A stretch of 64,000 nt of DNA, taken from an uncultured Methanosarcinales archaeon. GTDB taxonomy: Archaea > Nanobdellota > Nanobdellia > Woesearchaeales > JASKKU01. Each line of letters opens with the position of its first letter. Positions within the stretch are counted from its first letter, which is position 1. Made by a program: the position numbers and the translations under genes. Positions 48,965 through 62,057 of the stretch are shown in pieces. The notes under the pieces were generated by a model. That model was not told the DNA's origin, ran no database searches, and saw only the letters and a list, made by a program, of their open reading frames with translations. The DNA lies in assembly GCA_964386095.1 (NCBI GenBank), contig CAYLQM010000001.1, positions 4,372-68,371 of the forward strand, read 5' to 3'.

Positions 48965-50644
48965 ATGAAACGGGAATTGCCTGATATCATTGAAAAATAT
49001 GCTCTTAAAAATGCCATAGAACATAATGGCAAAGCAAATCCAAAAGCGCTGATTGGGAAAGTGATTGCAGAATTTCCCGAATATAAAACCAAAATTCGCG
49101 AGATAATGCCTTTCATCGAACAAAAGGCATCCGAAATAAATGATTTATCTCTGGAAGAACAGAAGCAGATTGCCCAGGAAAAGCATCCTGAAATATTTGT
49201 GAAAGAGAAAAAGAAGAAGGACCTGCCGGAGTTGCCTAACGCAGTGAAAGGAAAGGTTGTTACAAGGATTCCCCCTGAACCGAGCAAGTACGCTCATATT
49301 GGCCATGCTTTATCCTTTCTCATAAATTACATCTATGCCAGGAGGTACGAAGGCAAGAGTATTCTCAGGTTTGAAGATACCAACCCTGAAAAATCTGCTC
49401 AAGAGTTTGTTGATGCAATGCTAAATGATGTGCAAAATTATTTGGGAATCAAGCCTGATAAGATTATGTTTGCATCGGATGACATGCCCAAGTTTATTGA
49501 AGCAGCTGTTGAATTGATTAAACGTGGAAAGGCTTATGTTTGTTTTTGTGATCAGCAAACAATGAAGGAAAATCGGCAGAAAGGTCTGGAGTGCAGTTGC
49601 CGCAGTAAAAGTGTTGAGAAAAACCTAAAAGATTGGCAAGGAATGACGAATGGAAAATACAGTGCTGGGAAATGCACTTTAAGATTGAAGATTGATATGA
49701 AACATAAAAATTATGTTATGAGAGACCCGGTAATCTTCAGGATAGTCGAGCATGAACATTACAAGCACGGGCAAAAATACCGCGTTTGGCCAATGTATGA
49801 TTTTGAGAATTCTTTAGAGGATGCGTGGAATGGCGTAACTCACATACTTAGGAGCAATGAATTTGGAAAAATGCGCGAGGAATTGCAGAATTATATTAAG
49901 GAATTGTTCGGTTATCCAAAACCTTTTGTTAAACAATACGGCAGATTTAATGTAATGGGTTCAACAACAAAAGGCAGAGAAATAAGAGAATTGATTGAAA
50001 AGGGAGAATTAATTGGATGGGATGATCCAAGATTGGTTACATTAAAAGCTTTGAAACGAAGGGGTATACAACGGGAAGCTCTTTATGAAATGGTTAAAAA
50101 GATCGGATTATCATCGCAAATAACTAACATTGATTGGAATTTCATAAGCGCTTTTAACCGCAGGATTGTTGATAAATGTGCCAAGAGATTTATGTTAATC
50201 AGAAATCCTGTTAAGATTAGAATTAAGGGGGCTGAACCTCACGAAATAAAGATAAGACTTCATCCTGATGTTGATTACGGGTTAAAAACTCTTAAGGTTA
50301 ATGAAGAATTTTACCTCGAGAAAGAAGACTTTGAAAGCATAAGAGACAACGAAGTTGTAAGATTAATGGAATGCTTAAACTTCTATAAAAAGGGCGATGA
50401 ATTTTATTTTCATTCTTACGATTATAATGGATTTAAAGGCAAGGGTAACAAGATTATACATTGGTTGCCTGTTGAGGATTCGCAAGTTTTAAAAGTTAAA
50501 ATAATGATGCCTGATGCAAAAAAGATTGATGCATTATGTGAATTTAATGTTAAAGATGTTAAAGTGGATGAAATCGTTCAATTTGAGAGGTTTGGATTTG
50601 CTCGAAAAGATTCTGAGTTGGAGTTTTGGTATTCGCACAAGTGA
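48965..50644 (+). CDS. gltX: Glutamyl-tRNA synthetase (archaeal/eukaryotic-type class I Glx-RS)
   Basis: HIGH motif HIGHALSF and a Glx-RS catalytic core (RFEDTNPE). 559 aa with an anticodon-binding beta-barrel C-terminus. Confidence 0.85.
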   Translation: MKRELPDIIEKYALKNAIEHNGKANPKALIGKVIAEFPEYKTKIREIMPFIEQKASEINDLSLEEQKQIAQEKHPEIFVKEKKKKDLPELPNAVKGKVVTRIPPEPSKYAHIGHALSFLINYIYARRYEGKSILRFEDTNPEKSAQEFVDAMLNDVQNYLGIKPDKIMFASDDMPKFIEAAVELIKRGKAYVCFCDQQTMKENRQKGLECSCRSKSVEKNLKDWQGMTNGKYSAGKCTLRLKIDMKHKNYVMRDPVIFRIVEHEHYKHGQKYRVWPMYDFENSLEDAWNGVTHILRSNEFGKMREELQNYIKELFGYPKPFVKQYGRFNVMGSTTKGREIRELIEKGELIGWDDPRLVTLKALKRRGIQREALYEMVKKIGLSSQITNIDWNFISAFNRRIVDKCAKRFMLIRNPVKIRIKGAEPHEIKIRLHPDVDYGLKTLKVNEEFYLEKEDFESIRDNEVVRLMECLNFYKKGDEFYFHSYDYNGFKGKGNKIIHWLPVEDSQVLKVKIMMPDAKKIDALCEFNVKDVKVDEIVQFERFGFARKDSELEFWYSHK

Positions 50645-51306
50645 AAATGTTAGCGAAAGTTTTTAAAGAAAATCTAAAGTCAATGCTCTCGGGGATTTTG
50701 CTTGGTTTGTTGGTGTTTATCTTTTTCATTTTATCTTCGTGTAGCCATGCTGATTTCAGTAATGATAATCCTAAACTGTTGAACGGTAAGAGGTGCGTTT
50801 TGATTATTGCTCCAGAAAATTTTAGGGATGAGGAGTTAACAGTCACCAAGGATGTATTAATTGAGAACGGAGCATATGTAGATGTTGCTTCAGTTAAGAA
50901 GGGAGTTGTTAAAGGGATGTTGGGTTACTCAATACAGGTTGATAAAACTGTTTCAGAACTTTCTGTTGATGACTTTGATTGCGTTGTTATTGTTGGAGGT
51001 TCTGGCGCTCCTGTTTTGCTTAAGCATGATGAAGTGCTTGATTTTGTTAAGAGAAGCAATGAGTTAAATAAGACTATCGGCGCGATTTGTTTAGGCCCCA
51101 TGGTTTTGGCAAAGGCAGGAGTTCTTGAAAGCAAAGATGCAACTGTTTTCAAGAGCAAAGAATCTCTTGATGTTTTTAAGGAGAATAATGTTAATTTCGT
51201 TGATAAGCCTTTGGTTGAAATCGGCAACATAATTACTGCAAATGGTCCGGATTATGCAGCAGATTTTGCGTATGCTTTGGTCAGATTGTTGAGCGAGAAT
51301 AATTAA
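50626..51306 (+). CDS. DJ-1/PfpI-family protein with an N-terminal signal/lipobox (start more likely the Met at 50647)
   Basis: Catalytic-Cys context IGAICLGPMVLAKAG. N-terminal hydrophobic region ends in LSSC (lipobox-like). Confidence 0.7.
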   Translation: MVFAQVKMLAKVFKENLKSMLSGILLGLLVFIFFILSSCSHADFSNDNPKLLNGKRCVLIIAPENFRDEELTVTKDVLIENGAYVDVASVKKGVVKGMLGYSIQVDKTVSELSVDDFDCVVIVGGSGAPVLLKHDEVLDFVKRSNELNKTIGAICLGPMVLAKAGVLESKDATVFKSKESLDVFKENNVNFVDKPLVEIGNIITANGPDYAADFAYALVRLLSENN

Positions 51307-51335: not shown

Positions 51336-51653
51336 ATTGAAGATCAGCTTAATTCAAAAGGAAAACAAACACGAAATGTTTGGGCAATTCCACTTACACC
51401 AAAAAAGGAAAAATGGGCAGGAGAACATCCAACTCAAAAACCTGAAGAATTACTTAGGAGAGTTCTATTGGCATGCACTAATCCCGAAGATTTAGTTTTA
51501 GATCCGTTTTTGGGCTCTGGCACAACCTCAGCAGTCGCTATGAAACTAAGAGGAAACTCAATAGGCATTGAAAAAAATAAAAAATATTTGGAAATCATAA
51601 AAATTTGTAAACAAATTTTCTTAATATCTTTGAGGGGAGATGTTATCTCTTAA
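51336..51653 (+). pseudogene. C-terminal remnant of a beta-class N4/N6 DNA methyltransferase (motif I only; catalytic DPPY half absent)
   Basis: Open frame after a stop at 51333 encodes ...NVWAIPL...[58 protein letters not shown]. This is the HPTxKP + DPFxGSGTT + IGIE signature. No ATG is present and the listed start is TTG. Confidence 0.55.
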
Positions 51654-51753
51654 AAAACCATGCGAGGTGGTGCTGGAAAAAGATATTTCAACCAAAAACT
51701 TTTTATTTGCAATTCATCTAATTTAATCTAATGAATATGTTCCGGGTGAAAAA

Positions 51754-51936
51754 ATGATTGGCATAACTGAATTATTGATAATCTTGCTGATAATTTTAAT
51801 TCTTTTTGGGCCAAAGAGACTGCCTGAATTGGCAAGAGCTATAGGAAAATCGGTTCATGAATTCAAAAAGGCTTCGAGGGGAGAATACGCCGAAGATGAA
51901 AAGCCCAAAAAGAGAAACACAAAAAAGAAAAAGTAA
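51754..51936 (+). CDS. tatA: Twin-arginine translocase subunit TatA
   Basis: TM LLIILLIILILFGPKRLPELARAIGKSVHEFKKA matches the TatA/E consensus. Confidence 0.8.
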   Translation: MIGITELLIILLIILILFGPKRLPELARAIGKSVHEFKKASRGEYAEDEKPKKRNTKKKK

Positions 51937-52627
51937 TCTTATCAAGAGACCTCTCGCTGAACACTTGGAAGAGTTCAGATTTAGGATGCTCTTTTCCCTT
52001 TTTTTCTTTATGATAGTTTCACTAGTTTTATTTTTTGTCTCCCCTTATGTTTTAAAAAGAGTAATAAATGATTTCATAAATAATTCCGTGAAAATTGTTT
52101 CTTTAAGTCCAACGGAGGTAATACTGTCGGAAATAAGAATTGCTCTGTTTCTTTCTTTTATTGCATCACTGCCTGTGTTTATTTATCACTTATTCAAGTT
52201 CGTTAAGCCGGCAGTTAAAGATAATGAAAAACCTATGTTTGTTCTGTTCATTCTGTCCAGCCCTTTATTGTTTCTGCTTGGAAGCTGGTTTGCTTACTTT
52301 GTTGTATTGAAGTTTGCAATTGCCTTTTTTTCAAAAATCTCTTTGGTTGTAGTGAATTACAACTTGTGGAGTATTAAGGAATTGACCAAATTCATTCTGA
52401 ATTTTTGCTTCTCTTTTGGGCTCGTGTTTGAATTGCCTCTCATAATGTTCTTTTTAAATGCCTTAGGTTTGTTAAGTAAAGATGACTTTAAAAAATACCG
52501 ACCTTTTATTTATGTGATTATTTTTGTTCTCGCAGCCGTAATTACCCCGCCAGATGTTATCACCCAGTTGATTTTAGCTTTCCCGTTAATAATTCTTTAT
52601 GAGTTGTCCTTGCTTTTTATTAGATGA
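51857..52627 (+). CDS. tatC: Twin-arginine translocase subunit TatC (true start probably an internal Met, e.g. 51896)
   Basis: LAEHLEEFRFRM near the N-terminus and 6 TM helices. The track ORF overlaps tatA by 80 bp in another frame. Confidence 0.75.
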   Translation: MNSKRLRGENTPKMKSPKRETQKRKSNLIKRPLAEHLEEFRFRMLFSLFFFMIVSLVLFFVSPYVLKRVINDFINNSVKIVSLSPTEVILSEIRIALFLSFIASLPVFIYHLFKFVKPAVKDNEKPMFVLFILSSPLLFLLGSWFAYFVVLKFAIAFFSKISLVVVNYNLWSIKELTKFILNFCFSFGLVFELPLIMFFLNALGLLSKDDFKKYRPFIYVIIFVLAAVITPPDVITQLILAFPLIILYELSLLFIR

Positions 52628-52629
52628 TT

Positions 52630-54330
52630 TTATTTTTTATTTTCTGAGAAAACATGAGCCCTGTAAACATACACCTCTGTAGAGGAATCTTTCCAACAAT
52701 AAGGGTTCATGCCGCCTTTTATGCAAAGTTGGGTTAAAAACGATTCCTTATCAGGCAACTGCTCCCATACTTGAGGCAGGTAGGTGCTTTGCCTGAAACC
52801 TCTTTTCAATATTACGCCATGAACATTTGGAATAAGCTTGTTTTTCAAATCTTCGGGAGACGAAAATGTAAGTCTTGTTGGTACTGAGAGTGCAGAGATT
52901 TCTATGGTAATATCTTTTAATTCATCTGTTGAAACAGGGTTAAACCTGGGATCATTCACAGCGGCGTTTATTGCGTTGTCCATAACGCATTTATAGAGTT
53001 CTTCTTGAGGTAATATGTGCCCAATGCAACCTCTCAGCATTCCGTTCTTTTCAAGCGTTACAAAACAACCCATCTTTTGTTTTAATTTGTCAGATACCTG
53101 TGATTTATCTACTTTGGGTCTTCTCCCTGTTGCGAGATAAGTTTCAATGGTTTCACGGGCTAATTTCAGCAAAAATTCTTTTTCTTCAGGCGTTAATTCA
53201 ATAACACTATCTTCCGGGTTAGAGAATGCAATTGCCATGTAGCTCACCGAGTTTGTGAAATCGTTTAAGATGTTGCCAGATGCATCATATTTGATTAAGG
53301 TTGTATTTAATTGTTTGTCTTTTATTATGTTTAAAAGTAGGATTATTGGATTCCTGCCACAGATTGTATCTTGGGTTCTTTGGATGAAATTGTAAAAATT
53401 CAATGCGTCCTTGCTTTTAATACTTTCAAAAGCTTGCAAATCAAGTTTTTTAATGTTTTCCTTAACATTATCTGTAAATGGCAAATAACCATAATTTGCA
53501 CCGTAATGAGTGAAATCCGAGCTAACAACTATCAAACTATCATTATCGATGTATTCGTTTAGGGTTTTTGCAATCTCCTGCAAATCAGCATAACTGTTCA
53601 AGTTTCCAACCAACAAAGGAACGATTTCAAAGTCATTTAAACAGTACTGTAAGAAAGGAAGCTCTATTTCGATAGCATGTTCTTTTGAATGCATTTCAGG
53701 AACAAATGTGAAAAGAGGTTTTTTTAATAATTCTTTAACAATGTTTGAGACTTCAATTTTTCCGAGCGGGGTTCTGTAATGAGTAAAGTTTCCCACAGAA
53801 ATCCCCCGAAAGCTTGCATAATGAGATGGCGCCAAAATGAATACTTTCTGGTAGCTTTTATTGCAAATTGTGTTAAAAGCTGTTGAAGCGGTTTGACCGG
53901 AGAAACGCCAACCAGCATGAGGCACTATTATGGCAAAAATGTTTTCTTTTTTTAGTTTGCTGATTGTATTATTAATTTCTTGGATTTCCTTATTGTTTTT
54001 AAAGAAGGTTTCAATCTCGTTAATTACAGCTTCTTTTGTTCTGGGATACCATGAACCTGAGATTGCTGGTTCTCTTACAATTTCTTTAAACTTCGTTGTT
54101 TGTTTATTTGCCAAACCCGTTTCAGTTTTGTTGCCTAATTTCGTGCGAAATACAAGAATAGCAATAATTATGATTAATATCACAAGGGAAATTTTGAAAA
54201 TCGTTTTAATTTCTATAATTTGTTTTTTGCCTGATGTTTTGCTTTTATTCTTTCTTTTTGTCTTTTTGGCGGGTTTGCGAATTTTTGTCATCCTACCATC
54301 GCCCTGGAATTTCAGTATTGCAATATTCAC
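52630..54330 (-). CDS. Memo-like + AMMECR1 fusion protein with an N-terminal membrane anchor (AmmeMemoRadiSam components A+B fused)
   Basis: Basic N-terminal tail and one TM (ISLVILIIIIAILVF). Memo/UPF0103 motifs (SGSWYP..., IVPHAGWRFSGQTA). C-terminal AMMECR1 domain (MGCFVTLEKNGMLRGCIGHILP...VNDPRF). Confidence 0.75.
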   Translation of the reverse strand: MNIAILKFQGDGRMTKIRKPAKKTKRKNKSKTSGKKQIIEIKTIFKISLVILIIIIAILVFRTKLGNKTETGLANKQTTKFKEIVREPAISGSWYPRTKEAVINEIETFFKNNKEIQEINNTISKLKKENIFAIIVPHAGWRFSGQTASTAFNTICNKSYQKVFILAPSHYASFRGISVGNFTHYRTPLGKIEVSNIVKELLKKPLFTFVPEMHSKEHAIEIELPFLQYCLNDFEIVPLLVGNLNSYADLQEIAKTLNEYIDNDSLIVVSSDFTHYGANYGYLPFTDNVKENIKKLDLQAFESIKSKDALNFYNFIQRTQDTICGRNPIILLLNIIKDKQLNTTLIKYDASGNILNDFTNSVSYMAIAFSNPEDSVIELTPEEKEFLLKLARETIETYLATGRRPKVDKSQVSDKLKQKMGCFVTLEKNGMLRGCIGHILPQEELYKCVMDNAINAAVNDPRFNPVSTDELKDITIEISALSVPTRLTFSSPEDLKNKLIPNVHGVILKRGFRQSTYLPQVWEQLPDKESFLTQLCIKGGMNPYCWKDSSTEVYVYRAHVFSENKK

Positions 54331-55501
54331 ATTTTCCGTTTTTAATATGATTTTGAATTATGAGAAATCCTTTTCGTTCGATCAATAATTTGTTGCAATT
54401 TGGGCAATAAGTATGCTCGCCATCATGACCTGGCACATTTCCAATGTAAACAAATTTTAATCCTTGTTCTAAAGCAATCTTTCTCGCCCGGGTGAGAGTT
54501 TCAACAGGCGTGGGCGGTACATTTTGCAGTTTGTATTCTGGATGAAATCTGGAGAAATGTAAGGGGGTATTTTCAAACCCATTGTCATACAGCCATTTCG
54601 CCATCTTTTTAATCATATCAAGATCGTCAGTCCAATTTGGTATGATTAAATTGGTTATCTCTAACCAAACCCCTTCCTCATTTAACACTTTGAGCGTTCG
54701 TAAAACTGGGTCCAAGGTTCCGCCATTGAGCTTCTGATAGGTGCTGTTGCTAAAACTTTTCAAGTCAATATTGGCGGCGTCAAGAAACTTTGTTAGAGTT
54801 CTCAAAGGTTTTTCATTGATATATCCAGCGCTGATTAATACATTTTTAATCCCTTGTTCTCTTGCGAGTTTAGCAATATCGTAAGTGTATTCATAAAATA
54901 CAATGGGTTCAGAGTAAGTGTAGGCAATTGATGTGCAGTTGTTTTTCGCGGCTTCTTCAACAACTTGTTGTGACGAAAGATTATAGCTTTGCAGGTCTTC
55001 CGGATTTGATTGAGAAATCTCCCAATTCTGACAGTTTAAACATCTAAGATTGCAACCGGCAGTTGCTATTGAAAAGGCTGCGCTTTCAGGATAAAAATGA
55101 AACAACGGTTTTTTTTCAATGGGGTCAATATGCAATGCAACTGGTTTTCCATAAACTAAGGAATATAAGGTATTGTTGTGATTTTCTCTTACTCTGCAGA
55201 TTCCTCTACTGCCTTCCTGAAGAAAACATTCCCTTGGACATAACAAACATTTGACTCCAAAATCATATTTCTCATAAAACATTGCTTCTTTAAGAGAATC
55301 GAGTTTCATTTTGTCACTCTCTTTAGAAGTATTAGTTAAAAGACTATTTAAACTTTTAGAACCCAACAAGGAGTTAAACCCGTAAAGAGCCACGGCTAAA
55401 CTACCCAAACCAAGCACACTCTTTTTTATGAACTCTCTCCTGTCAACTTTTTTGGAGAGGATTTTTGGAATTCTGTTTTTAGATTTTTCTTTTTTGGGCA
55501 T
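54293..55501 (-). CDS. AmmeMemoRadiSam-system radical SAM enzyme with an N-terminal twin-arginine signal peptide
   Basis: CNLRCLNCQNWEIS is a CxxxCxxC radical-SAM motif. KCLLCPRECFLQEGSRGICRVREN is the family-typical N-terminal Cys cluster. The first ~50 aa read DRREFIKKSVLGLGSLAVALYGFNSLLGSKS, i.e. the Tat consensus S/T-R-R-x-F-L-K, then an h-region and an AxA-like site. Confidence 0.8.
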   Translation of the reverse strand: MPKKEKSKNRIPKILSKKVDRREFIKKSVLGLGSLAVALYGFNSLLGSKSLNSLLTNTSKESDKMKLDSLKEAMFYEKYDFGVKCLLCPRECFLQEGSRGICRVRENHNNTLYSLVYGKPVALHIDPIEKKPLFHFYPESAAFSIATAGCNLRCLNCQNWEISQSNPEDLQSYNLSSQQVVEEAAKNNCTSIAYTYSEPIVFYEYTYDIAKLAREQGIKNVLISAGYINEKPLRTLTKFLDAANIDLKSFSNSTYQKLNGGTLDPVLRTLKVLNEEGVWLEITNLIIPNWTDDLDMIKKMAKWLYDNGFENTPLHFSRFHPEYKLQNVPPTPVETLTRARKIALEQGLKFVYIGNVPGHDGEHTYCPNCNKLLIERKGFLIIQNHIKNGKCEYCNTEIPGRW

Positions 55502-55694
55502 ATTTTATTTTTTATGTGATTTGTTTTTAAAAATCTTATTGAACTTATGTAGGTTAAGGATGTTTAAGATAGATTGTTTTTCAGTTCTTTCGTAAGTGAA
55601 GGTATGTTGGAGTTTTAAGGATAGAAGAAATTAAGGTTAAGGTTTCCCCAGCTTTAACTGCTCTTCTACTGAAGTCATACCAGAAAATAGGGGA

Positions 55695-56447
55695 TTATTT
55701 TGTAAACTTTTTAACAGAGCAGCACCTTTTTAGCATTCTCCAGATTAAACCAACTGGACAAAAATGATTGCACCAAAATCTTGGAATTACCATTGAGAAC
55801 AATACCAATATGCCAATTATAACTGAGCCGAGTTTAACAGAGTAGGATGGCGTTAGGAAAATTCTTGTAATGAATTCGAGTTTCTGGGGGATAATGAGCA
55901 ATGAAAAGAATGCCAGCAGGAAAAATGTAAGAAAGATATAACCCATTGCATTTAAAATTAAACTTATTTTCTTGTTTTTATCAGGATTTATTTGTTTAAT
56001 TTTTAAACTTCTGCCAACAAGGTTTAAACTGTCTTGAACTTTTCCAACAGGGCACAAGTTGGAACACCATGTTCTTGATTCCAAGTTCATTAACACTGCG
56101 CTTGATAAAATGATATTCTGCATTTGGCCAAAAGGGCATTTTGCAGGACAAACCGAACAGAAAACATAAGGCATTTTAAACCTGCATTTAAACAGCGGGG
56201 CGGCAACAACAGGAATTAACAAGAATTGACCGAGGTTTCCGGTTTTATGCTTCAAATTCAATGCCTTTTTTGAAACTTTGAACATAAGAATTCCAAAGAC
56301 AAACAAGAATAGAATGAGGATTGTTAAATAAACACCTCTTTTGTAGAACAATCTGTTGATTGAGGCGTTTTTAAAGAAAAGAAGCAAGAGAATGAAAAAG
56401 AGAAGGTTGTAACTCAAACCCATCCAAAACTTTTTGTTATTAACCAT
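55695..56447 (-). CDS. Cys-rich polytopic membrane protein (3 x CxxxCP-type motifs), possible membrane redox/Fe-S protein
   Basis: CSVCPAKCPFG, CSNLCPVGK and CNHFCPVG between TM helices. 250 aa. Confidence 0.45.
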   Translation of the reverse strand: MVNNKKFWMGLSYNLLFFILLLLFFKNASINRLFYKRGVYLTILILFLFVFGILMFKVSKKALNLKHKTGNLGQFLLIPVVAAPLFKCRFKMPYVFCSVCPAKCPFGQMQNIILSSAVLMNLESRTWCSNLCPVGKVQDSLNLVGRSLKIKQINPDKNKKISLILNAMGYIFLTFFLLAFFSLLIIPQKLEFITRIFLTPSYSVKLGSVIIGILVLFSMVIPRFWCNHFCPVGLIWRMLKRCCSVKKFTK

Positions 56448-56467
56448 AATCTGCTAACTTTTGATTT

Positions 56468-58642
56468 TTAATTTTTAAACTTAACGAATAAAGTTGTGCA
56501 AAACTTTAATGCTGCCAAGATTAGACTTGTTTGCAATAAACCGAATAATGGGATTAAGATTAACGCTGTGATTATTGCTCCAAACAAGGCTCCCATAAAA
56601 TCCAAGCTGTATAATTCAGCCGAGGTTTTGGACTCGTTTTCAAAACTGATTTTAGCAACTGCGGGGAATTCAAGTCCTATAAGAAAATAAATTATAAACA
56701 AAGAAGACGAGAGAAGCAGTGTGGTTAGTGCTTGGGAATTAATGCTGCTTAATAACTTTATGATTAATGGCAGTAATATTAAAGCAATTGCGATTAAAAG
56801 CTCTGCATTTACGAGTGTTTTATTGTTTAATTTCTTCAGATTTCTGTATGCAAATAAACCGCCTGAAGTCATGCCGAGCAGAGCGGCTGAAATCAGCAAT
56901 CCTAAAGAGTAATACAATGTGCCGGCAATAATCTGAAATGAGAGGACTGCAACAATTTCAATGGCGGAAGCAACTATGCCTGATGAGAAGATAAGCACCC
57001 TTTTTGAATTGTTGCCCACAAACAAGATTAAATATCCTATGAATGAGCTGATAATTAGAAAAAACAAAACCCAGAATTTCAAACTAATCATCTGCAACCA
57101 GTTTAAAGAATAGAGAAAAAAAGCTCTTGGTTTAAAATTAAGATTTGGGGGTGTTTCCATATTTGTTTCTGAATTGAGCTGGGCAATTCTGTCGGGCGTT
57201 AATTGGCCTGTTAGATAGTATTCATTTACAAACAGATTAGAAATGTTTCTTTCTTTAACTTTGTTGATCAGTTGTACCGGCGATGTTGAAACATTGCTGT
57301 TTGAAGCAATAAAATAAACACGAGAACCAGGAATTAATTTTACAAATTTAAAGCAGGGATTTAAAGATTGTTTTATTGTTGAATAAAGCAGTTTTGTTTT
57401 CTCATTTAAGTAATTAGAGTAAACTCCTAAAGGAAATATTACTATGCTTCTGTTATTTGTTCTTTTTTTAAGCAAATGGAAGAATTCCTGCGAATAAAAT
57501 CTGTTGAATTCCAGGCTTGCAGGTTCGGGGAGATTTAATATGATCACATCAAAGGTTTTGTTCGTTTCTTTTAGAAATTGTAAGGCATCTCTTGAAATTG
57601 TTTGAATTTTGTCATTAGGTGTTAAGTTGAAATAAGTGTTTAGGATTTCAGTTAAGGTTTTGTCAGGTTCGATGATATAAACTTCCTTAATATTGTATTT
57701 GAGAACTTCATTAACCAAATCAGGATTGCCGTTCGGGACGGTGAATATTGTTTTAGGATTATCAAGCTGTAGCATAGCATAGTGCACAAGTTCTTCACTG
57801 CTTTGCTTGTCGTTTGATGAATAAATCAATTGACCGTTCTGATAAAGATTGTGTTGATTAATGATTTTAGTTAAAATGTAATTCCCAAACTTTGAGTTTT
57901 TTGTTAAAATTATCTGCTGGCCTGGGAACCCTTTTGACAGCGAAAAAGTTTCCAAATTTAGTCTAAGAAGCAAAATCGTTAAGAGTATTATGAAAGTAAT
58001 TAACAATACCTGTTTTGCTCTTTTTTTCAAATGAATCATTGAAATCATTATGAGATTAAGCGCTAGGGCGATTATAGTAATGGTTGTGTTATTCAACAAA
58101 TAACCCAAGAAAAAAGTAAAAATCAATGCGCCGAATACATTGCCCAAGTTATCAACATAGTAGCTTTTGGAAATTGACTTGTATCTTTGGTTAAGCGCTT
58201 TGGGAATGCAACTTAATAAACAGCCGTACAAAATGCAGAACGGAAACAAAATCAACAATGAAAACAAGAATAAACTTTGCAGGGCAACGAGAGTGCCGAT
58301 GGGGAACAAGAGGTTTCTTAACCATCTGATTGCAATGATTGTTGCTAATGGCAGAATGCCTAATGAAATATGAAAACTTAAAAGTTTCTTATCAGAAATC
58401 TTAAACCTTTTACATAGGTTTGCTCCGATTGAAAGCAAAATTAACCAGCTGACAAAAATGGTGATGTAAGAGAATTCATTGCCGTAAAAAGAATCCATAA
58501 GTTCTTTAATAATCAGAAGTTGCGTTAATGTTGCAGTTAAAGCTATAATGAATAAGGAAAAAATGTATTTCTTGTTTTTGTTTTTAATTAATACATGGTT
58601 TTGTCTTTTTTTTGGTTCCATAACTCGAAAGGTTTGAGACAT
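56468..58642 (-). CDS. Membrane protein with an embedded spermidine-synthase-like (aminopropyl/methyltransferase-fold) domain
   Basis: >12 TM helices flank a soluble segment: KEVYIIEPDKTLTEILNTYF...DKIQTISRDALQFLKETNKTFDVIILNLPEPASLEFNRFYSQEFFHLLKK (SpeE-like). The Gly-rich GGGDGG motif is degenerate (VPNGNPD). Confidence 0.55.
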   Translation of the reverse strand: MSQTFRVMEPKKRQNHVLIKNKNKKYIFSLFIIALTATLTQLLIIKELMDSFYGNEFSYITIFVSWLILLSIGANLCKRFKISDKKLLSFHISLGILPLATIIAIRWLRNLLFPIGTLVALQSLFLFSLLILFPFCILYGCLLSCIPKALNQRYKSISKSYYVDNLGNVFGALIFTFFLGYLLNNTTITIIALALNLIMISMIHLKKRAKQVLLITFIILLTILLLRLNLETFSLSKGFPGQQIILTKNSKFGNYILTKIINQHNLYQNGQLIYSSNDKQSSEELVHYAMLQLDNPKTIFTVPNGNPDLVNEVLKYNIKEVYIIEPDKTLTEILNTYFNLTPNDKIQTISRDALQFLKETNKTFDVIILNLPEPASLEFNRFYSQEFFHLLKKRTNNRSIVIFPLGVYSNYLNEKTKLLYSTIKQSLNPCFKFVKLIPGSRVYFIASNSNVSTSPVQLINKVKERNISNLFVNEYYLTGQLTPDRIAQLNSETNMETPPNLNFKPRAFFLYSLNWLQMISLKFWVLFFLIISSFIGYLILFVGNNSKRVLIFSSGIVASAIEIVAVLSFQIIAGTLYYSLGLLISAALLGMTSGGLFAYRNLKKLNNKTLVNAELLIAIALILLPLIIKLLSSINSQALTTLLLSSSLFIIYFLIGLEFPAVAKISFENESKTSAELYSLDFMGALFGAIITALILIPLFGLLQTSLILAALKFCTTLFVKFKN

Positions 58643-59076
58643 TCTTCTCTTGAAATCTGAGTGAATTTTATTTCACTTTCGTTCTCTAACGGGTTATTTT
58701 GTATGAATTCATAGATTCTCTTGTCGTCAAAACCTATCTCCTCAGCATCCTTGCTCGTACATCCAAAATAAACCTTTTTTATTCTGGCCCAGTAAATTGC
58801 TGACAAACACATTGGACACGGCTGGCATGTTGTGTATAAATCGCAGTCACTCAAGTCAAAGGTTTTTAGTTTTTTTGACGCTTTTCTTATGGCTGTAATC
58901 TCTGCATGCGCAGTGGGGTCTTTATTTTTTAACACCATGTTATGTGCTTTAACTATGATCTTTCCATCTTTGACAATAACGGCTCCAAATGGACCGCCAT
59001 GCCCTTTTTTTATGCCTTTTAAAGCTTCTTCTATGGCAATTTTCATGAATTCATTGTGATTAATCATCAAACGCAC
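58588..59076 (-). CDS. guaD: Guanine deaminase (CDA-fold, GuaD-type)
   Basis: GGPFGAVIVKDGKII, DPTAHAEITAIRKA, CQPCPMCLSAIYWAR, GFDD..IYEF and PFELW are almost residue-for-residue like Bacillus GuaD. The start is likely the internal MKIAIEEA. Confidence 0.75.
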   Translation of the reverse strand: MRLMINHNEFMKIAIEEALKGIKKGHGGPFGAVIVKDGKIIVKAHNMVLKNKDPTAHAEITAIRKASKKLKTFDLSDCDLYTTCQPCPMCLSAIYWARIKKVYFGCTSKDAEEIGFDDKRIYEFIQNNPLENESEIKFTQISREECLKPFELWNQKKDKTMY

Positions 59077-59093
59077 CTTTTAATGTATTTAGT

Positions 59094-60116
59094 TTAATTA
59101 AGATAAGCCTGCTTGTGAAGTTTCAACAGTTCTTTATTCTCTCTGAATCCTTTCAATAGATTAACGATTTCCCTTGCAACAGCGTTCTTTAAATCTAAAG
59201 GATGAAGTTTCTTAGCAATGAAATCTTTTTCAAGATGTTCATAAGTTGCATATTCAACATTACCGCCGAACTTTTCTGCTCTTTCAATCATAAAAGGTTC
59301 GTTCCTGTCCTGTTTTAAAATCATAATAAGATACTTTACTAATGACATGATACCATTGTTTGGGTCCCCTTCGGCGCATTCAGCTTTTCGGATTTTCCAT
59401 CTTACTGAATTTTCATCATCAAGCAAGTCAATTTTGCTGTATTCAACGCTGGAACTCATCTTTTCCCCAACAAGACCTCGAATCATTGGAGAAATCAATT
59501 CAATTTTGGCATTGTAATTAATCTTTGGGAGGAACTCTCTCGCGTAAACCATAATCTTTCTTTGATCCAAACCCCCGTATTGAATATCAACACCTAAATA
59601 AACCTCATCCAAGGCCTGCATTAAAGGATAGATAAGGTTAGCAAGTTTGGGGTTCTCCGTCATTTTCACGACTTCAGAAGCGGATTTTTTGCAGATTCTT
59701 ATGTTTGAAACGCTACTTAATCTGAGCACATCCCTAAAATAATCGCTATTCAATTCAATATCACTCCCCTTTACAAATTCCAACTTAGTTATGTCAACTT
59801 TGATGGTGTTAAGTATTTGGATTATGGCTTTTTTGTAGTATTCTGTTCTCTTTTCAAGTAAATTCCACGGCACGCCATCTAGAGCAGCATGCAAGTCTGC
59901 AAGTAGAATTTTTACTTTAAAGCCGGCTTTTAAGAAATCTGCAATCTTCAACATGGGAAAGAAGTAAGCTACCGAAATGCTGCCCGTAGGCATGGTCCCC
60001 CAATAAAGTGATGGAGTTTGCTTTGTTTTTAAAAGTTCCTTGAGTTCGTCTTCGGTTATAACCTCCTGCAGATTTCGGGTGACTAAATTGTATTTTGATT
60101 CAAGGTCCATTTTCAA
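59094..60116 (-). CDS. tyrS: Tyrosyl-tRNA synthetase (archaeal/eukaryotic type)
   Basis: YWGTMPTGSISVAYF...KAGFKVKILLADLHAALD, IYPLMQALDEVYLGVDIQYGGLDQRKI, KMSSS (KMSKS variant), ERAEKFGG and HPLDLKNAVA are collinear with M. jannaschii and human TyrRS. Confidence 0.85.
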   Translation of the reverse strand: MKMDLESKYNLVTRNLQEVITEDELKELLKTKQTPSLYWGTMPTGSISVAYFFPMLKIADFLKAGFKVKILLADLHAALDGVPWNLLEKRTEYYKKAIIQILNTIKVDITKLEFVKGSDIELNSDYFRDVLRLSSVSNIRICKKSASEVVKMTENPKLANLIYPLMQALDEVYLGVDIQYGGLDQRKIMVYAREFLPKINYNAKIELISPMIRGLVGEKMSSSVEYSKIDLLDDENSVRWKIRKAECAEGDPNNGIMSLVKYLIMILKQDRNEPFMIERAEKFGGNVEYATYEHLEKDFIAKKLHPLDLKNAVAREIVNLLKGFRENKELLKLHKQAYLN

Positions 60117-60890: not shown

Positions 60891-62057
60891 TCAAATTTTG
60901 GCCCTTTCTTTTAGGACCTTGGCAAGGTCGGTTTTTTCCCAGGTAAATTCAGGTTCTTCCCTGCCAAAATGACCAAATGCAGCTGTTTTCTTGTAAATTG
61001 GTCTTTTAAGATTTAAATGGGCAATTATACCTTTAGGTGTTAATGGAAACAGGGTTCTAACTAAATAAGCAAGTTTTTGTTCATTGATTTTACCAGTGCC
61101 AAAAGTGTCAATGTAAATCCCTACGGGTTGCGCAATACCAATAGCATAAGCCAACTGAACCTCGCATTTCTCAGCAAGACCCGCTGCAACTATGTTTTTG
61201 GCGATGTATCTTGTCATATAAGCTCCGCTTCTATCAACTTTGCTGGGGTCTTTTCCTGAAAAAGCGCCACCGCCGTGCCTGCCCAAGCCTCCATAGGTGT
61301 CAACAATGATTTTTCTTCCAGTTAAGCCAGTATCAGCAGCAGGACCGCCTAAAACGAACCTACCGGTAGAATTTATATATGTTTGGGTGTCTTCTTTTAA
61401 GTATCTTTTAAGAACGGGTTTGATTACATGGGTTTTTATATCTTCCTGCAATTTTGCGTGCTTTATGTTTTCGTTATGTTGGGTTGCGATAACAACAGTT
61501 TTGACTTTGCAGGGCTTTTCATCAACATATTCCACAGTAACTTGACTTTTGCAGTCTGGTCCTAAATATTTTAAGATTCCTAATTCTCTCACTTCTTTTA
61601 ACTTCTGGGTTAATTTATGAGCCAACATAATAGGTAAAGGCATAAGCTCTTTAGTTTCATTTGTAGCATAACCGAACATCATTCCTTGATCTCCAGCGCC
61701 CTGTTCGTGATTTTCGTTTTCGTCAACTCCGCGAGCAATGTCTGGGCTTTGGGGTTGAACTGAAACGAGAATCCCGCAACTATTGTAATCAAGCCCCCAT
61801 TTAACATCATTATAACCAATTTCTTTTATGGTTTCTCTTGCAACTTTGTCGATATTTACCTGGGCCTTGCTCTTGATTTCGCCCGCAATTATAATGTATC
61901 CTTTGGTTGCCAATGCTTCCACAGCCACTCTTGATTCGGGGTCTTTCTCAAGAAAAGCATCCAGAACTGCATCTGAAATCTGATCACAAACTTTATCAGG
62001 ATGGCCTGCACCAACGCTCTCAGAAGTAATTAACCTTTTCATAAAATCACCTCGCAT
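60891..62057 (-). CDS. metK: S-adenosylmethionine synthetase, bacterial/eukaryotic type
   Basis: [55 protein letters not shown] and DTYGG are MetK hallmarks. Confidence 0.9.

Follow-up and report, generated by a model that had tools for sequence, protein, structure and literature searches.

A candidate extracytoplasmic AmmeMemoRadiSam system with genetically linked membrane proteins in DPANN archaea and Bacteroidota

The stretch of DNA considered here, hereafter the window, comprises 64,000 nucleotides of contig CAYLQM010000001.1 (GenBank assembly GCA_964386095.1, positions 4,372 to 68,371) from an uncultured archaeon which is named as one of the Methanosarcinales in GenBank and placed in the Woesearchaeales by GTDB. 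It is AT-rich (~35% GC), and the names on the nearest relatives of its proteins are Woesearchaeota and Nanoarchaeota, which together with neighbouring genes of archaeal type makes a DPANN archaeon the most likely source. Our subject is a cluster of six genes in this window which encodes a radical S-adenosylmethionine (SAM) enzyme of the AmmeMemoRadiSam type with a twin-arginine translocation (Tat) leader, a membrane-anchored Memo-AMMECR1 fusion, a large membrane protein in which a SpeE-like domain is set within a major facilitator superfamily (MFS) fold (MFS-SpeE), a small cysteine-rich membrane protein of the Fer4_5 family, and the Tat components TatA and TatC. On balance, we favour the explanation that these genes represent an extracytoplasmic variant of AmmeMemoRadiSam with its own membrane support machinery.

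The genes of the locus and their products

The initial annotation of this DNA had described four minus-strand open reading frames (ORFs) running from 58642 to 52630 and ending tail-to-tail with tatA and tatC. All four, and both tat genes, were found at those coordinates (Table 1), and tatC and the Memo-AMMECR1 gene converge with a gap of 2 nt. The MFS-SpeE and Fer4_5 genes are spaced by 20 nt, and the ATG at 54291, likely to be the start of the Memo-AMMECR1 gene in preference to the GTG at 54330, sits 1 nt past the TAG of the radical SAM gene.

The radical SAM enzyme scores 390.1 bits against the AmmeMemoRadiSam model TIGR04337 (cutoff 220) over residues 80-402, and 66.5 bits against PF04055. 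It contains the radical SAM cluster motif CxxxCxxC (C150-N-L-R-C-L-N-C), together with an N-terminal CxxCxxxC...C motif and C-terminal CPNC and CEYC motifs, and it is a member of the AmmeMemoRadiSam family by profile score, by cluster motif and by its association with Memo and AMMECR1. In the fusion protein, the Memo part scores 224.3 bits against TIGR04336 (cutoff 26) and keeps the PHAG, SHY, DFTH and ICG motifs, and the AMMECR1 part scores 210 bits against TIGR04335 (cutoff 99) and keeps RGCIG433 and DPRF460, which conform to the diagnostic RGChG and DxR[aromatic] patterns. Judged by these scores and motifs, the catalytic core is a bona fide AmmeMemoRadiSam member.

The Tat leader that the initial annotation had assigned to the radical SAM enzyme is present in all its parts: a lysine-rich n-region is followed by D-R-R-E-F-I-K-K and then by an h-region of 20 Gly, Ala, Ser and Leu residues, the hydrophobicity of which lies below the threshold for a transmembrane (TM) helix. 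This combination of motif and moderately hydrophobic h-region is that of a Tat substrate at the level of sequence, and no other ORF of at least 100 aa in the window has a Tat-like leader. A clear cleavage site is not apparent in the leader, so that it may be kept as a membrane anchor. The anchor described for the Memo-AMMECR1 fusion is likewise present in the sequence: 14 of the first 36 residues are K/R and one strongly hydrophobic helix comes next, a hydropathy and charge pattern which identifies it as a predicted N-in signal anchor.

Such export features recur throughout the clade. Comparison loci, to which labels such as L001 and L157 are given below, were fetched by protein queries. Homologues of the radical SAM enzyme number more than 8000, and in the best 120 of these nearly every full-length protein has a leader of the form [ST][RK]RxF[IL]K with an h-region, DPANN leaders reading S-R-R-E/D-F-L/I-K and Bacteroidota leaders S/T-K-R-x-F-I/V-K. 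A pattern search over 92 fetched loci identified 86 leaders (61 KR, 18 RR, 6 RK and 1 KK); the six misses include three variants (SKREFLK, NRRQFTK and SIREFIK) and one N-masked sequence, and overall the leader is present in 86-90 of the 92 loci. In a second, independently fetched set, obtained with Fer4_5 as query, 30 of 32 radical SAM enzymes have the canonical RR leader. The tatA and tatC genes adjoin the cluster in the window and in the DPANN-type loci L001-L004, L083, L091, L093, L105, L115 and L121. As for Memo-AMMECR1, the bacterial fusions (~60 loci) bear Sec-type or lipoprotein-type signal peptides, for example '...FFNFNQGCSSQDK' and '...PVQAQKR', and the archaeal fusions bear signal anchors, so that signal peptides, lipoboxes or anchors are found in about 70 loci. 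In bacteria, the presence of the leader on the radical SAM enzyme and of a signal peptide on Memo correlate perfectly in the sample.

At L120 (10010-11146, minus strand), a radical SAM homologue lacking a Tat-type leader is encoded beside a stand-alone Fer4_5 gene and an MFS-SpeE gene. Its N-terminus consists of 'KK' and then a strongly hydrophobic helix (LIKKIFAFLFLVLVVGAAVFYIF) with the appearance of a Sec-type signal anchor, which looks hard to reconcile with loading of Fe-S clusters before export.

The 724-residue protein had been described as a polytopic protein with an embedded SpeE-like domain. The domain was confirmed by a match to PF01564 (Spermine_synth) at 4.4e-14, but the description of the membrane part required correction, as this has an MFS transporter fold. 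The protein belongs to the 'fused MFS/spermidine synthase' family NF037959, with 43.8 bits just above the cutoff of 40. An AlphaFold2 (AF2) model built with 45 homologues (pLDDT 90.7, pTM 0.89) places a globular domain (residues ~243-500) between two sets of seven TM helices, that is, an MFS N-lobe (TM1-6), TM7, the SpeE-like domain, TM8 and an MFS C-lobe (TM9-14), with the SpeE-like domain at the tip of the TM7/TM8 hairpin. The mean K+R count is 14.4 for inside loops and 1.7 for outside loops, and the positive-inside rule holds for this topology in 65 of 65 homologues. Because this charge bias is unambiguous, the SpeE-like domain is predicted to be extracytoplasmic. The domain has the three-dimensional fold of SpeE, with an N-terminal beta domain and a Rossmann domain, and the family keeps the S-G-G-x-S-G of motif I, the Glu of motif II and the adenine-binding Asp, so that it probably binds an adenosyl ligand. 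The D-x-x-D-P of aminopropyltransferases is replaced in the family by [DNS]-[LV]-[PG]-[DE]-P, a motif that is N-L-P-E-P in Bacteroidota and the window alike; other DPANN copies retain S-G-G-V-S-G and D-L-P-D-P. The family is large, with 12,799 representatives at 50% identity and E <= 1e-30, the best 150 of which are all full length, and these relatives bear automatic names only ('spermidine synthase'). Identity with canonical spermidine synthase was considered and is ruled out by motifs, by topology and by hidden Markov model cutoffs, the scores being far under those of the SpeE equivalog models (55.6 bits against 249.55 for TIGR00417 and 63.7 against 260 for PRK00811). Where SpeE has the Gly-rich dcSAM loop GGGxG and the catalytic D-x-x-D-P, the window copy has P-N-G-N-P-D and N-L-P-E-P. 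The annotated start of this ORF is overlapped by 55 nt by a cytidine deaminase gene (58588-59076, minus strand); the true start may be a downstream Met, since residues 1-8 are disordered in the AF2 model.

The 250-residue protein matches PF12801 (Fer4_5) at 41.3 bits (cutoff 22) in two stretches, which places it in that family. The three CxxxCP motifs that the initial annotation had pointed out are real (C100PAKC104P, C128SNLC132P and C226NHFC230P), and their cysteines are invariant in a small family alignment, in which eight invariant Cys form C-x8-C-x2-C-P-x2-C and two copies of W-C-x3-C-P-x-G, with the Pro residues likewise invariant. The resemblance to NapH and NosR that had been suggested stands in part: the Fer4_5 domain is above its cutoff, but the NapH/NosR models are not approached (39.6 bits against a cutoff of 234 for NF007013, 35.5 against 213 for TIGR02163 and 22.1 against 1000 for NF046105), and neither a C-terminal 2x[4Fe-4S] ferredoxin domain (CxxCxxCxxxCP) nor a Fer4 domain was found in the protein. 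Its AF2 model, from a 5-sequence alignment, has a pLDDT of 46.6, too low for use.

Table 1. Features of the gene cluster, in positions of the window
Feature	Position	Strand	Basis or remarks
MFS-SpeE protein, 724 aa	56468..58642	-	PF01564, NF037959
SpeE-like class-I SAM-fold domain, residues ~243-500	57143..57916	-	predicted outward-facing; motif I PNGNPD, motif IV NLPEP
Polytopic Cys-rich Fer4_5 (NapH-type) membrane protein, 250 aa	55695..56447	-	PF12801, alignments, DPANN adjacency, MFS-SpeE fusions
AmmeMemoRadiSam-type radical SAM enzyme, 402 aa	54293..55501	-	TIGR04337, motifs, leader
Tat leader of the radical SAM enzyme, residues 1-47	55361..55501	-	K-rich n-region, D-R-R-E-F-I-K-K, h-region SVLGLGSLAVALYGFNSLLG
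Memo-AMMECR1 fusion, predicted signal-anchored	52630..54291	-	TIGR04336, TIGR04335, hydropathy and charge, motifs
tatA	51754..51936	+	PF02416 78.9 bits; TIGR01411 71.4 bits (cutoff 53.9)
tatC, start uncertain, overlaps tatA	51857..52627	+	PF00902 185.7 bits; TIGR00945 167.4 bits (cutoff 132.7)

The frame of tatC needs a start 5' of the tatA stop codon to take in the conserved N-terminal 'HLEEFRFR', giving an overlap of tatA and tatC of at least ~40 nt, and L001 was called with the same overlap. Just upstream of tatA, at 50626-51306 on the plus strand, lies a gene for a DJ-1/PfpI family protein which is syntenic in the closest relatives, L001-L003 and L086; its N-terminus has a hydrophobic segment ending in a lipobox-like 'ILSSC', and the protein is probably exported. 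On the other side, 2.2 kb upstream of the MFS-SpeE gene, MetK is encoded (60891-62057, minus strand), a SAM synthetase of bacterial type with 388 aa and no signal; that it lies close to an exported system dependent on SAM may be coincidence.

Co-occurrence across genomes

The initial annotation had named a failure of the membrane genes to accompany AmmeMemoRadiSam genes as grounds for refutation, and it withstands this test. With the radical SAM enzyme as query and one genome taken per species, 80 loci were obtained, mostly from Bacteroidota but also from Ignavibacteriota, Desulfobacteraceae, Theionarchaea and Woesearchaeota, and the 73 of these with at least 2.5 kb upstream were regarded as informative. 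An MFS-SpeE gene is present in 62 of the 73, and in 56 it lies directly upstream on the same strand; the Memo-AMMECR1 fusion is present in 64, and 59 loci have both. All-against-all clustering of the ORFs of 91 loci gave exactly three conserved families, namely the radical SAM enzyme (91), Memo-AMMECR1 (74) and MFS-SpeE (72). The association also holds in the reverse direction, as genes for remote homologues of MFS-SpeE, at L095 in Omnitrophota and at L096 in a further bacterium, adjoin a radical SAM gene of the AmmeMemoRadiSam type.

The Fer4_5 protein evolves fast, and an indexed search gave three relatives only, but a metagenome scan with the Fer4_5 alignment as sole query gave 59 loci, of which 32 contain the radical SAM gene. 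In 22 of the 59, Fer4_5 is fused to the C-terminus of MFS-SpeE in an ORF of ~1000 aa that is directly followed by the Tat-type radical SAM and Memo-AMMECR1 genes, and in 12 a stand-alone Fer4_5 gene adjoins one for the radical SAM enzyme or MFS-SpeE. The remaining 25 have no visible partner gene; 17 of these contigs are shorter than 3.5 kb, and the lone relatives on long contigs sit amid housekeeping genes (GH1, DEAD helicase, AlaRS, CoaE). Across DPANN genomes, Fer4_5 adjoins the radical SAM or MFS-SpeE gene in six different gene orders. A profile of six DPANN Fer4_5 proteins found no homologue in any bacterial locus obtained with the radical SAM query, which rules out Fer4_5 as a universal component; on this distribution it appears to be a frequent accessory. 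That the Fer4_5 module might be hidden in the larger MFS-SpeE ORFs of bacteria (~830-900 aa) was also considered and is unsupported by the profile in Bacteroidota loci, true MFS-SpeE::Fer4_5 fusions having been found in the metagenome scan only.

Since the gene arrangement recurs in more than 100 independent loci sampled, it is not due to chance, and we consider it very likely that these genes form a genuine conserved multi-gene system. Tat-type radical SAM enzymes of DPANN and Bacteroidota are 55-63% identical across the divide between archaea and bacteria (L006-L085 against the window), and, as the entire three-gene module is common to both domains, this suggests inter-domain horizontal transfer of the module.

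Three loci serve as natural controls. L058 and L077 have the only truly leaderless radical SAM genes in the genome set; in both, Memo-AMMECR1 is without a signal peptide and there is no MFS-SpeE gene within ~10 kb on either side. L157 (1-2867; compare window 55300-60116) has a radical SAM enzyme 85% identical to that of the window and the same synteny of TyrRS, cytidine deaminase, radical SAM and Memo-AMMECR1 genes, from which the 65-codon leader, MFS-SpeE and Fer4_5 are missing as one block of ~3.3 kb; an in-frame stop codon lies nine codons upstream of the new radical SAM start. The three loci link the leader to the membrane partners. The window enzyme has an internal Met65 at the position where the L157 enzyme starts, and a leaderless isoform in the window is conceivable.

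Two further loci have unusual gene content. At L095, the genes ahead of the radical SAM gene are those for a 69-aa TM protein and for a NosR-like protein that combines FMN_bind, Fer4_5 and ferredoxin domains, and a 68-aa ORF just downstream encodes 'TRRDFLKTTGIFMAGLFLF...EARHY', a stand-alone Tat leader with the pre-domain segment; the gene may have been split, or the small product may be a partner for Tat hitch-hiking. At L004 (11276-15275), genes for an LplT-like MFS protein, a 4'-phosphopantetheinyl transferase and an Aas-like AMP-binding/PP-binding/acyltransferase protein are inserted between the radical SAM and Memo-AMMECR1 genes, a lysophospholipid-recycling-type cassette that hints weakly at a lipid substrate.

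Explanations for the conserved cluster

That the system is envelope-localised, as the initial annotation had proposed, is in agreement with three independent lines of evidence: the clade-wide Tat leader, the signals and anchors of Memo-AMMECR1, and the outward-facing prediction for the SpeE-like domain. We regard an extracytoplasmic location as likely. From conserved gene order, the MFS-SpeE gene, and in many lineages that for Fer4_5, is genetically locked to the Tat-type radical SAM gene. Export itself, the supply of SAM and of electrons, and the substrate are what we infer from these patterns. In the mechanism we propose, the radical SAM enzyme would fold and take up its Fe-S clusters in the cytoplasm, would be exported by the adjacent TatAC, and would stay at the outer membrane face, possibly anchored by its uncleaved leader. 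There it would act with Memo (metal-dependent, dioxygenase-like) and AMMECR1 (with its catalytic Cys) on an envelope substrate, for which RNA would be a less likely candidate than a surface molecule or a lipid or isoprenoid of the membrane. MFS-SpeE would most likely export and dock SAM, or else the substrate itself, and Fer4_5 would relay reducing equivalents from the cytoplasmic face for reductive cleavage of SAM. The cytoplasmic form makes do with three domains. These supply roles are assigned because the added parts match what a radical SAM enzyme lacks outside the cytoplasm, that is, SAM and an electron, and we put them forward as tentative, each being somewhat doubtful in its specifics.

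Several observations weigh against an extracytoplasmic radical SAM enzyme supported in this way. We know of no radical SAM enzyme that works outside the cytoplasm, nor of SAM or a low-potential reductant on that side of the membrane. Motif I of the window MFS-SpeE (P-N-G-N-P-D) is the most degenerate among the 65 homologues, and the SpeE-like domain of the window may not be SAM-binding. Bacterial leaders are mostly KR rather than RR, and the Bacteroidota, Ignavibacteriota and Desulfobacteraceae loci sampled are all without Fer4_5, which can be no universal requirement given its absence from them. The Cys motifs of Fer4_5 adjoin K/R-rich segments, which suggests that two of the CxxxCP motifs are on the cytoplasmic side, the charge counts being ambiguous for the 4-Cys motif. 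At L157, Memo-AMMECR1 keeps its signal anchor beside a leaderless radical SAM enzyme, and at L095 (9286-12084, minus strand) the 325-aa radical SAM enzyme of an Omnitrophota genome is itself without a leader. Within the window, an AT-rich gap of 193 nt between the Fer4_5 and radical SAM genes splits the supposed operon and makes a single four-gene transcript uncertain. A scan for promoters and terminators over 51600-59200 has no bearing on a transcript boundary at 55501-55695, as its counts equal the shuffled expectation and its consensus sequences are bacterial, which makes it uninformative in an archaeon.

Some of these observations are accommodated by a split pathway, in which the radical SAM enzyme works on the cytoplasmic side, its RR leader being a targeting or partner-binding remnant, and receives electrons from Fer4_5 at the inner face, the MFS part exports an intermediate, and the SpeE-like domain and Memo-AMMECR1 finish the reaction outside. 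NarG has a vestigial Tat motif, and the topology of NapH matches a cytoplasmic-side placement of the CxxxCP motifs of Fer4_5, which are flanked by K/R-rich and presumably cytoplasmic segments. Leaderless radical SAM enzymes beside a still-anchored Memo-AMMECR1 (L157) or in the same gene neighbourhood (L095) are in keeping with this scheme, the MFS fold implies a transported cargo, and the problem of supplying SAM and electrons would be solved. However, the full Tat consensus is kept in about 120 loci from two domains of life, which goes beyond the needs of a remnant; the small genomes of DPANN have tatAC physically linked to the cluster, with the radical SAM enzyme as the sole Tat-type ORF in 64 kb; and in bacteria the leader and the Memo signal peptide go perfectly together in the sample. 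We consider the split pathway to be the strongest rival, and unlikely. A more limited modification would leave the rest of the scheme unchanged and have Fer4_5, instead of donating electrons for SAM cleavage, reduce or deliver Cu or Fe for the metal site of Memo once this is exported. Metal reductases of the CcoG type (CcoG is a cupric reductase) belong to the Fer4_5 fold family, and Memo binds metal; many lineages do without Fer4_5, as they might without an accessory factor for maturation, and its eight invariant Cys are not accompanied by the CxxCxxCxxxCP ferredoxin-type domain of NapH and NosR. This role in metal handling is nevertheless quite improbable, as the 22 fusions join Fer4_5 to MFS-SpeE and not to Memo, L087 and L088 have Fer4_5 beside the radical SAM gene with no Memo gene on the contig, and the equivalent in Omnitrophota is a NosR-like FMN_bind/ferredoxin protein, an architecture typical of electron transfer.

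It could also be held that the membrane proteins are coincidental neighbours: an ordinary spermidine synthase bound to the membrane, or a polyamine transporter, of 724 aa, and a generic ferredoxin-like protein of 250 aa, neither related to the AmmeMemoRadiSam genes. Automatic annotation does name the relatives of the former 'spermidine synthase', the 193-nt gap does lie between two gene pairs, and some Fer4_5 relatives are found among housekeeping genes. Against this, the adjacency is kept in Bacteroidota, Ignavibacteriota, Desulfobacteraceae, Omnitrophota, Woesearchaeota and other DPANN, gene fusions exist, the SpeE equivalog score falls far below its cutoff and D-x-x-D-P is changed to N-L-P-E-P, and the SpeE-like domain is predicted to face outward. 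The co-occurrence data effectively refute this explanation, to which we attach hardly any probability.

Relation to known systems and implications

The canonical three-gene AmmeMemoRadiSam system has been defined bioinformatically by the models TIGR04335 (A, AMMECR1), TIGR04336 (B, Memo) and TIGR04337 (the radical SAM enzyme). The system described here is like it in having the three modules above curated cutoffs, the diagnostic motifs, and adjacent and translationally coupled genes. It differs in the addition of a Tat leader to the radical SAM enzyme, in the fusion of Memo with AMMECR1 and the anchor or signal peptide on the fusion, in one or two extra membrane proteins that are obligately linked, and, in DPANN, in the adjacent tatAC. 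As with NapG, hydrogenase small subunits and Rieske proteins, a twin-arginine leader is found on an Fe-S protein the gene of which lies beside that of a membrane redox partner, and, as in Rieske proteins, the leader may stay uncleaved as an anchor. Unlike these Tat-exported Fe-S proteins, the passenger here is a radical SAM enzyme, dependent on SAM and on an electron of very low potential, and we know of no member of the radical SAM superfamily for which export has been shown.

MFS-SpeE resembles the fused MFS/spermidine synthases and the PRK03612-type polyamine aminopropyltransferases in having an N-terminal polytopic domain and then a complete SpeE fold. In contrast to these membrane spermidine synthases, it has a second block of seven TM helices that completes a 14-TM MFS transporter, its SpeE-like domain is predicted to face outward, its motif IV is changed and its gene is locked to that of a Tat-type radical SAM enzyme. 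The Fer4_5 protein shares with NapH, NosR, MauN and CcoG a polytopic structure, the W-C-x3-C-P-x-G motifs at the ends of TM helices and the PF12801 domain, but differs from NapH and NosR by the extra invariant C-x8-C-x2-C-P-x2-C and by its frequent fusion to MFS-SpeE; in Omnitrophota the equivalent neighbourhood is held by the NosR-like protein with FMN_bind, Fer4_5 and ferredoxin domains.

From archaea to humans, Memo and AMMECR1 are conserved proteins with links to human disease, the biochemical role of which is enigmatic, as is what the system acts on in prokaryotes. The PCAD-Memo superfamily study of Burroughs and colleagues (JBC, 2019) reportedly ties Memo contexts to isoprenoid modification. 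In the literature we found neither an exported radical SAM enzyme nor an AmmeMemoRadiSam system described as exported or as linked to MFS-SpeE or Fer4_5, a mention in Burroughs et al. 2019 being possible. Modification of RNA bases has been proposed as the function of the AmmeMemoRadiSam system (Balaji & Aravind 2007, PMC2034487). For the clade described here, an RNA substrate is disfavoured because the predicted site of action lies outside the cytoplasm.

The module is common to more than 100 loci sampled and is not unique to the window. A large clade in which all catalytic domains are predicted to be exported limits the options for the substrate of the system and offers genetically linked partners, and the 'fused MFS/spermidine synthase' family, with its thousands of representatives, gains a functional context. 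In DPANN archaea, the radical SAM enzyme may be a principal reason to retain the Tat system. The boldest form of the proposal, to which we give rather less than an even chance, is that this would be the first radical SAM system outside the cytoplasm, with the MFS protein exporting SAM and docking it on the outward-facing SAM-fold domain, in many lineages a fused or adjacent Cys-rich module supplying the electron, and an envelope molecule rather than RNA as substrate of the system as a whole. If true, cells would deliver SAM and low-potential electrons across the membrane, contrary to the working assumption that restricts radical SAM chemistry to the cytoplasm. As the exported enzymes are about 55-60% identical to the cytoplasmic ones, the same would then apply to the whole system, disease-linked human MEMO1 and AMMECR1 included, with a substrate in the membrane or envelope, for instance a lipid or an isoprenoid.

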